The position numbers were made by a program. Shown here one piece after another: positions 33,001 through 60,000 of a DNA stretch of 64,000 nt (position 1 is its first letter; the number at the start of each line of letters is the position of its first letter). Source of the stretch: an uncultured Planctomycetia bacterium (GTDB lineage: Bacteria > Omnitrophota > Gorgyraeia > Taenaricolales > CAZCCH01). The stretch covers positions 11,830 through 75,829 of the forward strand of contig CAZCCH010000006.1 in NCBI GenBank assembly GCA_964497315.1, read 5' to 3'.

Positions 33001-36000
33001 CCGGAGTAGAGGTAATATTAATAAGCCTGCTGATATTTTCAGGCATTAAGCTTATCTTTAGCATATTGTATGCGATAAAGATTTTGGAGATAAAGAAACT
33101 TAGCTGGCAGTCGTCTCTTACATGGGCCCAGGTTAAGTATTGCATTCCGCTTGGTTCTTCAAGGATACTGCCAAGGTTAACCCAGCAGCTTGATAAGATC
33201 ATAGTATCTATATTTTACTTACCGCATAAATTCGCTATTTATTCAGTAGGTGCAATTGCCTTGCCGTTTATAAATGACCTGTCGACAATTATAGCAGATG
33301 TGTTGTTTCCGAAAGTTACGCAGATGTATCATGAGAAAAAGACAGATGATGCCATGGAGGTTTGGCATAAATCCATAAAGAAGGTAACGCTGATTATAGC
33401 CCCGCTTGCGGTTTTTATGTTTATATTTGCCAGAGAGATTGTTACATTTATCTTTTCGAAAAATTATGAAATGAGTGCTGTGCCATTTCAGATATTTTTG
33501 CTTCTTTTGCCTGTAAGATGCACCAATTTTAACCTATTGCTTAAGGCCTCCGGGCATACAGGTTCTATTTTTAAAATAGGCTGCAAGGTATTTTTAGTAA
33601 ATATAGCACTTAGCCTTTTATTTGTAAAACTAATCGGGTATACAGGACCTGCCTTTGCCATGGTTGCATCGGTTTATTACGCAGCCATATCAAGGCTCAT
33701 CAAGATAAAAAAGGTTTTTAATACGAGTTTTTCGAAGGTATTTCCATGGTCGAGCCTTGTAAAAAGATGGGCTATGGCATTAATCCCAGCCTGTCTTAGC
33801 CTACCGGTTTTATACATGGGACTGGCAGATGGCTTGAAGATACTTTTTGGTTTTATTATATTTAGTTGTTCGTATGTTGCGCTCCTTCTTAAATTTAACC
33901 TTATTACAAAGCAGGATAGGCTAATAATAAAGAAGTGGGTAACTTTAGAAACCATTACCGGATAATAGAAATAGGAGGTTTTTAGTGGGTGTTAATATAG
34001 CTGTTGTAGGTGCGGGTTATTGGGGTCCCAATCTAATTAGGACGTTTAATTCTTTAGATACGGCCCGTGTAGTTACTATATGTGATACTAATAAACAAAG
34101 GCTTAAGCACATAAAAGAACAGTATGGCGATGTTTCTACTACCCTGGATTATAATGAGGTACTCAAAGATACAAATATAGACGCTGTAGTTGTTGCCACT
34201 CCCGCGGATAATCACTACAAGCTAACGAAAGAATGTCTCTTGGCAGATAAAGATGTTTTTGTTGAAAAACCATTAGCACTTAGCGTAATAAAGGCAGAGG
34301 AATTAGTTAAGCTTGCCAGGAAAAAATCAAAAATAATATTTATAGGCCACATATTTTTATATAACGCAGCTGTAGTAAAAATAAAAGAATACATTAAGCA
34401 AGACGAACTAGGAGACATCTATTATATTTATTCTCAGCGTTTAAACTTAGGAAGGGTAAGGCAGGATATCAATGCCATGTGGAATTTGGCACCACATGAC
34501 ATCTCCATACTCCTTTACTGGTTTGATGAAATGCCTATAAAGACTTCTGCTAAGGGCATAACATATCTTCAGGATGGCCTAGAAGATGTAGTGTTTATGA
34601 ATTTGGATTTTGCAAATGGGAAATGCGCACATATACATACAAGTTGGCTGGATCCAAACAAGGTAAGAAAGATGACCATTGTCGGAAGCAAGAAGATGAT
34701 AGTATATGACGATGTAAGCAATGATGCCAAGATACAAATATATGACAAGGGTATTACAAAAAAGACCATATCGGATGACTTGGGAAGTTATGATAATTTT
34801 GGTAAATTCCAACTTATACATCGAGCAGGAGATCTTTTAATACCCAAGATAGATTTTATAGAGCCCTTAAGTGCAGAGTGCAAGCATTTTATAGAGTGCA
34901 TCAATACCAAAAGAAGACCACTAACTGATGGAGAGAATGGTCTTGAGGTAGTGAGAATTTTAGAAGCTGCCCAGAAGTCACTAAAAAGCGGTGGCTTACC
35001 AGTAGATATATAAATTAAAAAATATGAAGAAGTCGAAGATTTTAATGATAGACCCGGAAGGATCAATGCTGGGTCTTAATACGGGTATCGCTTACTGCAC
35101 TTCAGAGCTGCTTAATAACGGTTTTGCTGTAAGCGTACTTGATATGAACAATTTCAGAGATGGTGACGCAAGAGAAAGAATAAAGAATGCCATATTTTTT
35201 GCTGAACCTGACTTAATAGGTATCTCTGTGCATTGTCTTTCTTACTACACTACACAAGAATGCATAGATACGATAAGAGATTTTTGGTCTGGACCTATAG
35301 TAGTGGGAGGAGCAGAGGCTGCTATACAAGCAGAACAGTTTTTAGAGGATAACCCCAAGGTAGATATAGTTGTATTAGGAGAAGGTGAGAGGGCAATTCG
35401 TGAACTAGTCGAATGCATAGAGCGAGATCAACCCATATCATCAGCTTCAGGCATCGTATATAGACAAGACGGATGCATAAAAAGAAGTCCTCCTAGGATG
35501 TTCGAAAAAGACTTAAATTCAGTGGCCTTTCCGAACTACGATGTCTTTGGGGTTAAGCATATAGATGACTATGTGTTAATGACAAGTCGCGGCTGTCCCA
35601 TGAATTGCTCTTTTTGTTTTTCATATACAGGTAAGACATGGCGCGCAAGAAGACCTGCAAACTGCATAGAAGAGATAAAACAAGCGAGAGAGAAATACTC
35701 AATAGATTCTTTCAGGATTTCAGATCCTTTTTTTAATGCCAGGACAGACAGGGTTGAGGAATTTTGCGAGCTTTACCTCGCTGAAGGCATAAACTTGCCA
35801 TGGCGCATAATGGGCTTTAGGGCAGATAAGGCCCCGATATCAATGCTTAAGAAAATGAAACAGGCAGGTTGCATAAGGGTGTGTTTGGGTGTGGAGACGC
35901 TGGATCCTTATGTATTTGAACAGATAGATAAAGGTGAATCAATAGAGACTATAAAAGAAGGCATAAAGAAATTACAGCAATGCGGCATTGAGATAGGTGC

Positions 36001-57000: not shown

Positions 57001-60000
57001 CTGGAGAGAGCAATAGAGGATAATCCCTTGCTTGTGGGCATATCCGTAATGTCCGGATATCCGGTGAAGAAGGCGCTTGAGATAACCAGACAGATAAAGG
57101 CTAAAATGCCAAACGTTCCCATTGTCTGGGGTGGTCCTCATCCGACAGTTTTACCAGAAGATGTATTGAAATATAAAGAAGTAGATTATCTCGTGAGGGG
57201 TTGGGGTCGCAAACCCCTAGCACTTCTAACCAGGATGCTTAAGGAAGAAGATGTGGATCCTGGCAGCATACCAGGCCTGTGTTACAGAAAAGACGGAAAC
57301 ACAAAAATTACCAGCATAAATGCAGAATTTGAGCCATCGTCTTATACAGATATACCATATCAATTGATTGAGGGGCGAATAGATAAATATTACAGCAGGA
57401 TGAACGAGAAGGTCCTGCCCGTGTTTACGGCTTGGGGGTGTCCATACAACTGTAATTTCTGCATCGGACCTATATGGTACAAAGACCTGAAGACGAAATG
57501 GGTTCCCTTTGAAGTAGGCGATGTTGTCGGACACATAAGACATTTAAAACAAAGGTACAATCCTGACATGATATATTTTTTTGATGACACCATACCCTCA
57601 AAGAGACATTTTATAGATATTATAAACCGGATAAAGCAAGATGGTATACAGGTAAAGATAGGCGTTCGCGGCATGAGGGTAAACGATATACTTAAATTAT
57701 CCGGGCAAGACCTTCGGCTGCTTCGAAGCGCTGGCGTTGAGACCCTGCATGTGGGTGTTGAATCCGGTTCGCAAAGGATGCTTGATTTTATGCAAAAGGG
57801 CATTACTGTAGAGCAGTCTTTAGAGGCCAACAGGTTGCTGGCAGCTTCCTGCGATATAAGACCTTTATATAATCTACTTACAGGATTTCCCTATGAAACC
57901 ATAGAAGACCTGCACAAGACAAAAGATTTTATGCAGACCTTGGTAAAGGAGAATAAAAATTGCATCTTGATTGGCCCATCACGGTACATACCATATCCTG
58001 GCTCGGCGCTGTACGATGAAGCGCTAAAGAACGGTTTCATGCCACCTGGCGATGCTGAGGGCTGGGCTAGGCTCGATCAAGAGAATGAATTTACCATGCC
58101 CTGGTATAGCCGGGGTTACCTCTCTTATATAAAGATGCTATATATGGCAGGGTTGGTTATAGATGATAAAGAAAGGTTTTTTGGAAGGTATAGAAGGGTT
58201 TTGAGGATATCGTACAAGATTGCAAAAGCATTGTATGCACCATTTTTAAGGTTTAGATTGAGATATGACCTGCACAATTTTATGTTTGAATATAACATAA
58301 TGAGATTTCTGGCACAGACTATTGCGAGGTTTTAATAAGGTATATGTGTGGAATAAGCGGATTTCTATCATTCAATGGCCAAGTTAAAGAAAATGCCCTG
58401 AGGCAAATGTCAGAGGCAGTCAAGCACAGGGGTCCGGATGATGAAGGCATTTACCTGGGGAGGGCTAACCCAGAGGTTGCTATCGGTCTTGCACACAGAA
58501 GACTGAGCATCATTGACTTGTCTGAGAAGGGTCATCAGCCCATGGAGGCGGGCAATACCGTTTTAGTCTACAACGGAGAGATATATAACTACCAGCAGTT
58601 AAAAGAAGAGCTGGTAAGGGCTGGGTATGAATTTAAATCTCAAACGGATACTGAGGTTATAGCATTGGGTTACCGGCACTGGGGTGAAAGCCTATGGGGA
58701 AAACTTGAGGGTATGTTTGCCTTCGCTCTGTGGGATAAAAAGAAAAACCTGCTTTTTCTTGTCAGGGATAGCTTTGGCATAAAACCGCTTTATTATTATA
58801 AAGGCGCTGGATATTTTTTGTTTTCCTCGGAAATAAAAGGCCTGTTGGCATCCGGGATGGTGCCAAGGCAAATGAATAAGAGGACCCTGTATCACTTTTT
58901 AAGCTATTTTTATACTCCTGGGCCGGAGACTATTATTGAGGGAGTAAGGCATGTCAGACCAGGAACAAGGCTCTTAGTGGATTTAAGGGGAAACCTCCGC
59001 GAAGATAAGTTTACTTATGCTGGAGCTAACAGGATAGATACGACGGATAACTTGAGGGAAGCGGATTTTTTCAATATGCTGCGCGCAGAGACAGGCAATG
59101 CCGTTAAGTCTTCAATGGTAGCAGATGTGCCTGTTGGCTTGGTATTAAGCGGTGGCATGGATTCAAATGTTGTGCTCCATGAGATGAAAAATGCCTGCAA
59201 GGAGAGGATACAGACCTTTACAGTAGGTTTTGATGACCTGAGTTTTGATGAATCCCAGCAGGCAAGATTTGTGTCAGAGTTTTTTGCAGTAGAGAATATA
59301 CAGTCTAGGTTTAAAAAAGACGAACTACCGAAGTATTACGATGAGGTAGTATACTACCATGATTCATTAAGTGCCAACCCGGCAGCCATACCGGTGTATT
59401 TATTTTTTAAGCTGGCCTCGGACCACGTTAAGGTTGTGCTTTCAGGGACAGGTGGCGATGAATTACTGGGTGGCTATTTTACTTATATAGCCGATGTGTT
59501 TAATAGGTATTATCAGAGGCTGCCGCTTTTTTTGCGCAAGGCAATTCATGGTGCAGTTAACATGTTACCGGTCAGCCATGGTCTATACAGCTTTGATTAT
59601 CTATCTAAAAAATTTACCGAAGGCGCATTGTTTAAAAACCCGGATAAAGGGCATTACTGGTGGAGGACCATCTTTACAGATATGGAAAAGGAAGCACTCC
59701 TATCGCGTGATTTCATAAATGAACTGGGTAAAGATGACCTGGATAGCTTCTTGTTTTATGAAAGAGAGCTCAAGGATATTCCGCGGGAAGGCATTTCACT
59801 GCAGGAGAGATACATGCGTTCTGATTTTAACCTATTCCTGATAGAGAATGCTGTTAGGATGTTTGATAACCTGAGCATGGCGCATTCGATTGAATGCAGA
59901 CCTCCCTTTTTACACCAGAGGTACGTACAGTTCTGTAGGTCGGTGTCCACCAAACATAAGATTAAAGGGTTTAGCACGAAATATTGCCTAAGGGAGAGCT

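Follow-up and report, generated by a model that had tools for sequence, protein, structure and literature searches.

Cobalamin-type radical SAM paralogues in a surface-glycan operon of an uncultured Omnitrophota bacterium: candidate tailoring enzymes of polyprenyl-phosphate-linked sugars

INTRODUCTION

What are eight related radical S-adenosylmethionine (SAM) enzymes, each with an apparent B12-binding domain, doing among the glycosyltransferases (GTs) of a bacterial surface-polysaccharide locus? The question is raised by a 64-kb stretch of contig CAZCCH010000006.1 from an uncultured marine Omnitrophota bacterium; we call this stretch the window and use its coordinates throughout. An earlier note, made from the sequence alone, had singled out eight B12-binding radical SAM (rSAM) genes and one SPASM-type rSAM gene, and had proposed extensive radical tailoring of a surface polysaccharide or of its polyprenyl-linked precursors. 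Genomic context, that is operon structure and recurrence in other genomes, supports this proposal, with the qualification that the link is not only to a Wzx/Wza backbone but also to polyprenyl-phosphate/GT-C side-branch systems. We think it rather probable that these proteins are class B (cobalamin-dependent) tailoring enzymes of a cell-surface glycan, which would probably act on sugars carried by polyprenyl phosphate, with C-methylation as the likeliest reaction; we infer the glycan target, the lipid-linked stage and the methylation from the evidence set out below.

RESULTS

The B12-binding rSAM paralogues and the SPASM protein

All features lie on the + strand. Each of the eight open reading frames (ORFs) reported in the earlier note was found again in our ORF listing, and so was the SPASM gene. 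A further B12-rSAM gene lies just beyond the window end, so the count of eight holds for the window and becomes nine for the source contig:

35024..36493, +, B12-binding rSAM paralogue 1: 489 amino acids (aa); PF04055 82.9 bits, PF02310 45.2 bits; CPMNCSFC
37724..39379, +, B12-binding rSAM paralogue 2: 551 aa, TTG start; both domains by Pfam
41490..42995, +, B12-binding rSAM paralogue 3: 501 aa; both domains by Pfam; starts 4 bp after GT2 gene 40781
42996..44435, +, B12-binding rSAM paralogue 4: 479 aa; both domains by Pfam; the member closest to the other paralogues
45390..46520, +, radical SAM/SPASM protein: 376 aa; Radical_SAM, Fer4_12 and SPASM by Pfam; overlaps both neighbouring genes
46508..47893, +, B12-binding rSAM paralogue 5: 461 aa; both domains by Pfam
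47897..49342, +, B12-binding rSAM paralogue 6: 481 aa; GGHHAS; both domains by Pfam
52289..53749, +, B12-binding rSAM paralogue 7: 486 aa; both domains by Pfam; directly 3' of two GT-C genes
56833..58335, +, B12-binding rSAM paralogue 8: 500 aa; AWGCP; start overlaps the ArnC-like GT2 gene by 1 bp
About 1.6 kb past the window end, source contig, ninth B12-rSAM: 460 aa; CPGRCTFC, GGAHPT; PF02310 93.7 bits, PF04055 above cut-off

The source contig is Ga0117905_1000413 (80,254 bp), a Joint Genome Institute (JGI) metagenome contig that recurs across several samples and to part of which the window is 100% identical. Beyond the window we covered 12 kb upstream (L095) and 4.4 kb downstream (L091, whose position 10001 is window position 62848). 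An apparently truncated ninth rSAM in an ENA contig (L094) was discarded, since a stretch of Ns in that assembly had produced it. A DnaK gene lies on the source contig 9 kb 5' of the window start; its product is 76-83% identical to many DnaK proteins, and all those with an organism name are from 'Candidatus Omnitrophota/Omnitrophica', which identifies the source as a marine Omnitrophota bacterium.

Both expected domains are present in all eight window proteins: PF02310 (B12-binding) at 45-90 bits against a Pfam gathering score of 32.1 bits, and PF04055 (Radical_SAM) at 56-92 bits against 29.5 bits. Every ORF has one CxxxCxxC cluster motif, with SRGCP ahead in seven and AWGCP in 56833. The GGPHPT-type motif attributed to all of them by the earlier note is found, as GG(P/A/H)H(P/A)(T/S), in seven; 35024 reads VGGAEAA instead. 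The presence of eight B12-rSAM genes within 23 kb cannot be due to chance.

A model of 42996 obtained with AlphaFold2 (pLDDT 88) was matched by Foldseek to AprD4, MgmA, OxsB, TsrM, CysS and TokK, the class B enzymes being retrieved at probability 1.00 and cobalamin-bound structures being among the matches. The N-terminal domain of 42996 can be aligned to the part of TokK, CysS and OxsB that binds cobalamin, the 'AGGPH' loop included; in the sequence alignment, TokK 'VVAGGPHVPDRP' stands opposite 'IIAGGPHPTVLP' of 42996. The best PDB match, by sequence as well as by structure, is AprD4, a sugar 1,2-diol dehydratase that we take to be cobalamin-independent, and the sequence alignment with it covers only the rSAM barrel (residues 169-395). 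AprD4 is grouped as unrelated in a 2026 review (PMC12931638). An AprD4-like, cobalamin-independent reading of the paralogues was rejected because the similarity is limited to the barrel and the partners of the N-terminal domain in the alignments are genuine cobalamin binders; against the NCBIfam AprD4 model (NF033070) the paralogues score at most 119 bits, for a cut-off of 500. That the N-terminal domains might have some other fold, a doubt left by the earlier note, is countered by the PF02310 scores of all eight and by the alignment of 42996, which support, without amounting to proof, the prediction of cobalamin domains. We infer from this that the paralogues use cobalamin.

The glycan operon around the rSAM genes

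All window genes are on one strand. Between 16757 and the window end no intergenic gap exceeds 39 bp and overlaps are frequent; this string comprises more than 38 co-directional genes, and start/stop overlaps in it link rSAM genes to genes of family 2 glycosyltransferases (GT2s). The other genes of the locus are:

8804..16473, +, nucleotide-sugar supply: two uridine diphosphate (UDP)-sugar dehydrogenases (Ugd), RmlA/B/C/D-like proteins and epimerases (Pfam)
16757-17686, +, epimerase (Pfam), export end of the same packed gene string
17683-19254, +, Wzi (Pfam, 272 bits), export end
19269-22268, +, Wza, 999 aa, Poly_export and SLBB repeats, export end
22274..23587, +, GT-C (PMT_2): PF13231 51 bits; 8 predicted transmembrane (TM) segments
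23581..25284, +, polytopic membrane protein, 567 aa; no Pfam or NCBIfam match; a homologue (E 1e-57) lies beside rSAM genes in locus L011
25247..26047, +, polyprenyl-phosphate sugar synthase-like GT2 (Pfam); best NCBIfam match ArnC, 85 bits; 26-28% identical to 40781 and 55922
26028-26771 and 26737-27651, +, class I methyltransferases, directly 3' of GT2 25247 in place of rSAMs
29843..31201, +, GT-C (PMT_2): Pfam 37.9 bits; 9 predicted TM segments
31228-31899, +, weak Wzz-like protein, 223 aa; 23 bits for a cut-off of 25.5
31914-32462, +, hexapeptide acyltransferase (Pfam)
32463-33965, +, Wzx flippase (PF13440/PF01943)
33985-35013, +, GFO/IDH/MocA oxidoreductase (Pfam)
36511..37752, +, family 4 glycosyltransferase (GT4): Glycos_transf_1 95.5 bits; between rSAM 1 and rSAM 2
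39383..40762, +, GT-C (PMT_2): Pfam 29.2 bits; 9 predicted TM segments; flanked by rSAM 2 and the DPMS-like GT2
40781..41485, +, polyprenyl-phosphate sugar synthase-type GT2, 234 aa, no TM segment; best PDB match DPMS 5mlz (E 7e-26), then ArnC and GtrB
44432..45418, +, conventional GT2 (TarP/GalT1-like), 328 aa; Pfam; PDB 5tze, 5hea
49317-50645 and 50649-52280, +, two adjacent GT-C (PMT_2): PMT_2 58.9 and 48.3 bits, plus PMT and STT3
53789-54763, +, SDR sugar dehydratase/epimerase (Pfam, NCBIfam)
54779-55891, +, DegT/ArnB/PseC-like aminotransferase (Pfam, NCBIfam)
55922..56833, +, ArnC/DPMS/GtrB-like polyprenyl-phosphate sugar synthase GT2, 303 aa; two C-terminal TM segments; PDB and NCBIfam matches
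58344-60269, +, AsnB-type amidotransferase (Pfam)
60236-60988, +, GNAT (Pfam)
60990-61736, +, class I methyltransferase (Pfam)
61640-62851, +, GT4 (Pfam)
62848..63804, +, 318-aa protein, no Pfam match
L091:10957-15395, past the window end: ArnA-like formyltransferase, 242-aa GT2, ninth B12-rSAM and 491-aa protein with a weak match to the sugar deacetylase VimE, after which the contig ends

By Pfam annotation the window holds five GT-C (PMT_2), four GT2, three GT4 and three class I methyltransferase genes, as well as several SDR genes. Pfam confirms the neighbours that the earlier note had described (GT2, GT-C, GT4, SDR epimerase/dehydratase, DegT aminotransferase and AsnB). Of its Wzx/Wza/Wzz label, Wzx (32463) and Wza (19269) are solid, and Wzz (31228) stays below threshold. 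Its statement that precursor-peptide ORFs are lacking agrees with the gaps of at most 39 bp, which leave no room for separate ones inside the cluster, and Pfam annotation of the window likewise gave no lipid, cofactor, polyketide, non-ribosomal peptide synthetase or peptide-precursor genes. An Rfam scan of the window returned no match, cobalamin riboswitches included.

Two components of three-component glycosylation systems are present, the polyprenyl-phosphate sugar synthase GT2 and the GT-C transferase. The PDB structures that best match 40781 and 55922 are those of DPMS, ArnC and GtrB (5mlz, 9bhc/8vxh, 5ekp), and the NCBIfam matches of 40781, 55922 and 25247 are AglJ, PpgS, ArnC and dolichyl-phosphate (Dol-P)-hexose transferase, all below equivalog cut-offs. 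Five GT-C candidates (22274, 29843, 39383, 49317 and 50649) score above the gathering score of PF13231 (PMT_2), each with 7-11 predicted TM segments. The source contig carries, in all, four such carrier-loading GT2 genes (three in the window, one downstream) and five GT-C genes. Three of the four carrier-loading GT2 genes are directly followed by an rSAM gene (40781 by 41490, 55922 by 56833, the downstream GT2 by the ninth rSAM), and in the downstream module the rSAM gene lies between the GT2 gene and the deacetylase-like gene. The polytopic protein 23581 could be a missing Wzy, a divergent GT-C or a member of a new GT-C-like family; its assignment to GT-C was not retained, hhalign against the GT-C alignment giving only 45% probability.

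The DegT aminotransferase, the formyltransferase, the deacetylase-like gene and Ugd suggest an Arn-like logic. As judged from the scores, they are not members of the Arn pathway itself: the equivalog cut-offs are unmet by the ArnB-like (293 for 631 bits), ArnC-like (53-85 for 529) and ArnA-like (86 for 777) proteins, and the deacetylase is VimE-like at 76 bits.

Paralogue relationships and family placement

The eight window paralogues are 23-34% identical in pairwise comparisons and at most 37% identical to the ninth (for example 31.5% for 41490 and 56833, 35% for the ninth and 42996). For six of the nine, the best matches, at 39-48% identity, are in loci of other phyla or of archaea, which is above any within-locus pair. 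Thus 37724 has relatives in three archaeal loci (L036, L043, L046; 39-41% identity), 46508 in a Woesearchaeota locus (L070; 44%), and 52289 in L006 and L009 (40%), where they stand alongside a 42996-type paralogue. Since these six are closer to outside relatives, the array was assembled from old, distinct subfamilies and not by recent expansion, which suggests distinct specificities.

None of the nine B12-rSAMs reaches the cut-off of a characterised NCBIfam family. The class B families compared were BchE, HpnJ, PhpK, Sden_1168, ApyD, BzaD, HpnR, KedN5, the ladderane rSAM, the MCR Gln methylase and TsrM. The nearest are BchE, HpnJ, ApyD and Sden_1168, all far below cut-offs: the best ratio is that of 42996 to BchE (240 bits for a cut-off of 481); other best matches are those of 35024 (BchE, 135 for 481), 37724 (Sden_1168, 195 for 575) and 46508 (HpnJ, 176 for 578), and 47897 reaches no cut-off either. 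Membership of a characterised rSAM family was discarded for all nine on these sub-threshold matches, and this includes the non-glycan families that the earlier note had allowed for. The best NCBIfam match of the SPASM protein 45390 is AhbD (88 bits for 500), aligned from residue 25.

The family to which 42996 belongs is large, with at least 2820 homologues at E<=1e-20 among 8000 candidates scored, almost all of them unnamed. About half of its 120 best homologues are fusions of some 700 aa that join a B12-rSAM to a C-terminal class I SAM methyltransferase (e.g. L009:10001-12109), so that one substrate would undergo methyl-transfer or SAM chemistry of two different kinds.

Predicted cellular location

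No signal peptide was found in any of the nine B12-rSAMs, and a simple hydropathy scan revealed a single hydrophobic stretch in only two (37724 and 52289). In all nine the C-terminal 90 residues have a net charge of +6 to +12 and contain 11-20 aromatic residues (F/W/Y), a composition that would fit peripheral or interfacial membrane binding and that we take as weak evidence for it. Radical SAM chemistry requires Fe-S clusters, SAM and a cytoplasmic reductant; the enzymes must consequently act before their substrate is flipped or exported. The best reading is that the B12-rSAMs are cytoplasmic class B enzymes.

Recurrence of the association in other genomes

Relatives of 42996 were collected from one genome per GTDB species (584 in total), and the neighbourhoods of the best 80 were annotated by ORF calling, phmmer and an iterated GT-C hidden Markov model. 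All 80 come from metagenome-assembled genomes, belonging to Omnitrophota, Bathyarchaeia, DPANN, Anaerolineae, Planctomycetota, Desulfobacterota and others, and 34 of the loci have at least two B12-rSAM genes. When genes within 10 kb of an rSAM gene were counted in the 41 loci of at least 15 kb, a GT-C gene was found in 15, a carrier-loading GT2 gene in 14, one or the other in 19, and some glycan gene in 25. The share of glycan genes among the non-rSAM genes is 16-25% at all distances up to 10 kb. As a general rule, GT-C genes are far rarer than ~5% of genes. Among the 124 nearest non-rSAM neighbours, the top Pfam families are Radical_SAM, GT4/GT1, GT2, LPG_synthase_TM, methyltransferases, PMT_2 and epimerases, and none of the 25 families listed is a lipid-synthesis or peptide-maturation family, LPG_synthase_TM being read as flippase-like. 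The comparison of neighbourhoods thus upholds the link to glycan genes drawn in the earlier note: a context of GT-C and polyprenyl-phosphate sugar synthase genes recurs in unrelated genomes.

Individual loci illustrate this. A small GT2, one or more B12-rSAMs and class I methyltransferases occur together in two bacterial loci (L006, L009) and an archaeal one (L007, with the archaeal markers L21e, Rpb4 and Pus10 nearby); this set is joined by a GT-C (PMT/PMT_2) and LPG_synthase_TM in L007 and L009, and by GtrA in L006. Larger batteries are found in L011 (seven rSAMs, a SPASM protein, two GT2s, of which one carrier-loading and one ordinary, and the homologue of 23581), in L030 from Bacteroidales (six rSAMs, GT-C, DegT), in L056 (five rSAMs, three GT-C, two GT2), in L028 from Omnitrophota (four rSAMs, five GT-C), in L085 (four rSAMs, two GT2, one GT-C) and in L012 from Nanoarchaeota (three rSAMs, two GT-C, a GT2 and a SPASM protein). 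Two Bathyarchaeia loci, L019 and L020, contain 4 to ~9 B12-rSAM genes or fragments each, with a SPASM gene in L020.

Paralogue 56833 represents a narrower, distinct family (382 matches), and the context is glycan-related in all three of the loci inspected. In the first (L099), orthologues of DegT (63% identity), the ArnC-like GT2 (55%), the rSAM (47%), AsnB (41%) and the formyltransferase (30%) are all present, so this cassette is conserved gene for gene; the locus also holds a Polysacc_deac_1 protein and a YfhO-type GT-C. In the second (L100:5358-7961, from a 6.7-Mb genome), the rSAM stands beside a 57% identical GT2, and this GT2 is split by a DDE transposase into fragments of 136 and 265 aa. 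In the third (L101), genes for a SPASM protein, a B12-rSAM and a GT9 heptosyltransferase are consecutive. A SPASM rSAM gene lies directly 5' of a B12-rSAM gene at three unrelated loci (L099:5007-8008, L101:6923-9569 and window 45390-47893); the SPASM proteins of these pairs are only 24-28% identical and their B12 partners come from different subfamilies.

Other features of the contig

The 5' part of the window and its upstream flank contain several further features:

L095:6085-6711, ~2.8 kb 5' of the window start, 208-aa stand-alone protein with B12-binding_2 and B12-binding domains; apart from its gene and those of the B12-rSAMs, nothing cobalamin-related was seen on the contig
9-2395, +, two overlapping diguanylate cyclase genes (GAF-GGDEF; membrane-anchored GGDEF)
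6152-7969, +, carbamoyltransferase
7974-8381, +, SxtJ-like membrane protein
8399-8557, +, 52-codon ORF, a single hydrophobic helix
10121-10567, +, 148-aa RmlC-like cupin that also matches Polysacc_synt_C (E 4e-13), which is odd for a short soluble protein

The 52-codon ORF, with 6152 and 7974, resembles a conserved three-gene set (6152-8557). Sigma-70-like hexamers were seen by eye in the only large gap (422 bp), TTGACA at 8622-8627 and TAATAT at 8645-8650 with a spacing of 17 nt; as they precede the first sugar gene, 8804, they may mark the start of the glycan transcription unit. The diguanylate cyclase genes are a few genes 5' of the glycan supercluster and could point to control of the surface polysaccharide by cyclic di-GMP.

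DISCUSSION

The proposed pathway

The pathway that we propose would begin with a small DPMS/ArnC/GtrB-like GT2 that loads a sugar on polyprenyl phosphate, an Arn-like DegT/formyltransferase/deacetylase route making an aminosugar first in some modules. The rSAM would then modify the lipid-linked sugar at the cytoplasmic face of the membrane, the modified donor would be flipped across it, and a GT-C would transfer the sugar to the polymer made and exported by the Wzx/Wza/Wzi machinery. The nine divergent paralogues would provide for different positions or substrates.

Three stages before flipping are possible: nucleoside diphosphate (NDP)-sugars, polyprenyl-phosphate monosaccharides and repeat units linked to undecaprenyl diphosphate (Und-PP). 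The deformylase ArnD and DprE1/E2 are precedents for tailoring at the lipid-linked donor stage, and auxiliary epimerases are also described that tailor lipid-linked donors before flipping (PMC11127046). Because of such precedents, the association with GT-C and polyprenyl-phosphate functions, the position of the rSAM gene in the downstream module and the C-terminal tails, we favour the polyprenyl-phosphate monosaccharide.

Several observations weigh against this proposal. Two-domain architecture alone is no guarantee of cobalamin use, to judge from AprD4, and 35024 is without the GGxHxT loop. The window has no GtrA-, ArnE/F- or MATE-type flippase and no LPG_synthase_TM, the Wzx-type 32463 being the only flippase, and neither an initiating phosphoglycosyltransferase (WbaP/WecA type) nor a recognisable Wzy was found in the window and the examined flanks. 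A Wzc-type kinase is also lacking there despite the presence of Wzx, Wza and Wzi; the three missing components may be located elsewhere or be too divergent to be detected. About half of the related loci have neither a GT-C nor a polyprenyl-phosphate sugar synthase GT2 within 10 kb, and no GT-C or carrier-loading GT2 was detectable in the multi-rSAM arrays L019 and L020. When gene order was permuted within loci, adjacency of rSAM genes to carrier-loading GT2 genes (12 observed for 8.8 expected, P=0.11) and to GT-C genes (14 for 11.7, P=0.23) was not significant. Pooled comparison of distance 1 with greater distances gave a modest difference (14.3% versus 7.9%, Fisher P=0.012). Coupling of gene pairs was discarded on account of the permutation result, and we claim the association at the level of the locus.

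Which reaction, and at which stage?

Class B enzymes most commonly methylate an unactivated carbon, methylases form the majority of those annotated, and the enzymes that act on sugars or lipid-linked sugars include GenK, GenD1, Fms7, MoeK5 and HpnJ (PMC9204698). What weighs against methylation here is that the nearest characterised families, BchE and HpnJ, as well as the best structural match, the dehydratase AprD4, are non-methylases, which leads us to put its chance at about one half. Some or all of the paralogues could instead catalyse rearrangement or ring contraction (like HpnJ and OxsB), dehydration or deoxygenation (like AprD4), epimerisation or C-C coupling on sugars, an alternative that we regard as somewhat unlikely. 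In its favour are the presence in the locus of three class I methyltransferases and the fusion of such a domain to about half of the top 42996 homologues, and HpnJ, which acts on lipid-linked glucosamine, is a fitting model, BchE and HpnJ, the highest-scoring characterised families, both being non-methylases (PMC9204698). Yet the scores for BchE, HpnJ and AprD4 are all far below cut-offs, AprD4 resembles the paralogues in the rSAM barrel only, their N-terminal domain being like that of true cobalamin binders, and the prevalence of methylases among annotated class B enzymes (PMC9204698) speaks for C-methylation.

Another possibility concerns the stage. The rSAMs might act on soluble nucleotide-activated sugars, ahead of the GT2/Leloir transferases, and not on polyprenyl-phosphate-linked ones. 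The locus is indeed rich in genes that would serve such a stage (Ugd, Rml-like genes, SDRs, DegT, GFO and the hexapeptide acyltransferase), and fine-scale adjacency to the polyprenyl-phosphate sugar synthase GT2 genes is not significant. Fom3, whose substrate is cytidylylated (activated with cytidine monophosphate), gives a precedent for a class B methylase that acts on an activated substrate; it is listed among the class B methylases in the 2022 review cited above (PMC9204698). This alternative, however, leaves unexplained the link to the polyprenyl-phosphate/GT-C route across phyla and the placing of the downstream rSAM gene between the ArnC-like GT2 and the deacetylase-like genes, and the C-terminal tails, with their positive charge and aromatic residues, point to association with the membrane. 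We therefore consider it unlikely, and prefer tailoring of the polyprenyl-phosphate-linked sugar.

A role on lipid chains, whether of membrane-spanning or branched lipids (Grs, Gmm, Gms), of hopanoid-like lipids or of the polyprenyl carrier itself, is the most serious alternative to a glycan target, because clusters of the SPASM protein Gms with the B12-rSAMs Gmm and Grs modify archaeal glycerol dialkyl glycerol tetraether (GDGT) lipids and have homologues in bacteria as well (PMC11214058). Many relatives of 42996 are from Bathyarchaeia, some without detectable GT-C or GT2 neighbours (L019, L020), and cationic aromatic tails would fit any membrane substrate. Gms is defined by an AhbD-like core with a ~100-aa N-terminal COG4001 extension and by clustering with tes or mss (PMC11214058). 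In 45390 this extension is absent, the cluster motif being at residue 32; the window and contig flanks have no tes, mss, ether-lipid, hopanoid or other lipid-synthesis genes; the conserved cassette around 56833 follows an aminosugar logic; and the top 25 neighbour families include none for lipid synthesis. For the window, we rejected a Gms/Gmm/Grs-type reading on the missing N-terminal domain and lipid genes, and hold a role on lipid chains to be very improbable; it may still apply to some archaeal relatives. The L019 and L020 arrays may be lipid-modifying clusters of this type, in which case the wider family would be functionally mixed.

Maturation of a peptide or protein, either a ribosomally synthesized and post-translationally modified peptide (RiPP) or a protein acceptor of PMT-like O-glycosylation, has the slightest chance of all: peptide maturases are frequent among SPASM proteins, proteins can be glycosylated by GT-C enzymes of the PMT family, and there are partial matches to ApyD and other RiPP C-methyltransferase models, but ApyD scores are 59-238 bits for a cut-off of 750, gaps of at most 39 bp leave no space for precursor ORFs, no protease, transporter or leader-recognition genes are present, and glycan genes run through the whole context.

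Comparison with known systems

Among the nearest known systems are those of the Gtr/Arn-type with three components, in which periplasmic glycosylation combines a polyprenyl-phosphate sugar synthase, a flippase and a GT-C, with the ORF13 epimerase as an example of an auxiliary enzyme (PMC11127046). Like these, the window has small DPMS/ArnC/GtrB GT2s, several GT-C and an Arn-like DegT protein, and the contig adds formyltransferase and deacetylase genes; tailoring genes are interleaved, and the window set lies inside a locus of O-antigen or capsule type. Unlike them, it has nine class B rSAMs as auxiliaries, no dedicated flippase in the window and at least four modules in one operon. With Wzx (32463), Wza (19269) and Wzi (17683) it is also similar to group 1-like Wzx/Wzy loci for capsule or exopolysaccharide (EPS).

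In moenomycin biosynthesis, the substrate of MoeK5 is a uronic acid borne by a prenyl-phosphoglycerate lipid, and the AsnB-like amidotransferases MoeF5 and MoeH5 work beside it. The likeness, by description only, is that rSAM 56833 of the window has AsnB 58344 as its partner and that Ugd genes are present; MoeK5, one of the class B C-methylases in the list of PMC9204698, belongs in contrast to the pathway of an actinomycete antibiotic, not of a surface polymer, and that pathway has no GT-C enzymes. GenK, GenD1, Fms7 and AprD4 have the same two-domain architecture and perform radical chemistry on unactivated sugar carbons, but their substrates are soluble pseudo-oligosaccharide antibiotics. In the HpnI/HpnK/HpnJ pathway, the glycosyltransferase HpnI joins a sugar to a membrane lipid; once a deacetylase has acted on this lipid-linked sugar, the class B rSAM HpnJ remodels it. 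For 42996, 46508 and 52289, the HpnJ family gives one of the highest scores of any characterised family, at 116-228 bits for a cut-off of 578; the differences are that HpnJ contracts the ring without methylation and that the window has no hopanoid genes. The Gms/Gmm/Grs clusters share with ours a SPASM rSAM grouped with B12-rSAM paralogues, membrane-embedded substrates and a wide occurrence in uncultured anaerobes, and differ in their lipid-chain substrates, in the COG4001 domain of Gms that 45390 lacks, and in tes/mss, absent from the window.

Novelty and significance

In the literature we found no described cobalamin rSAM in capsule, O-antigen, EPS or GT-C systems. Reviews of class B rSAMs from 2022 (PMC9204698) and 2026 (PMC12931638) present roles in antibiotics, cofactors, pigments, hopanoids and peptides, and the words polysaccharide, glycan and lipopolysaccharide are absent from both. 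The rSAM protein family and the three-component concept are already known; their combination, and its scale of nine paralogues plus a SPASM protein in one operon, appear to be undescribed.

We would go further only tentatively, and hold it possible rather than probable that the locus exemplifies a widespread means of glycan diversification in uncultivated anaerobes (Omnitrophota, DPANN and other archaea, Bacteroidales, Desulfobacterota and Planctomycetota), in which batteries of cobalamin rSAMs remodel polyprenyl-phosphate-linked sugars by C-alkylation (possibly iterative), ring contraction or deoxygenation, the products being installed on the surface by GT-C enzymes. If so, these organisms would carry surface glycans with branched or rearranged sugars of kinds unknown from cultured bacteria. 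The five-gene cassette of DegT, ArnC-like GT2, rSAM, AsnB and formyltransferase is of a size amenable to heterologous expression.

Class B rSAMs form a very large and mostly uncharacterised family, and our proposal, if true, would provide a large part of its unannotated sequence space with a physiological function. Radical chemistry would then join the known routes by which bacteria and archaea diversify their surface glycans. Omnitrophota and DPANN are believed to rely on cell-to-cell contact in their lifestyle, and new sugar structures would be predicted on the surfaces of both.

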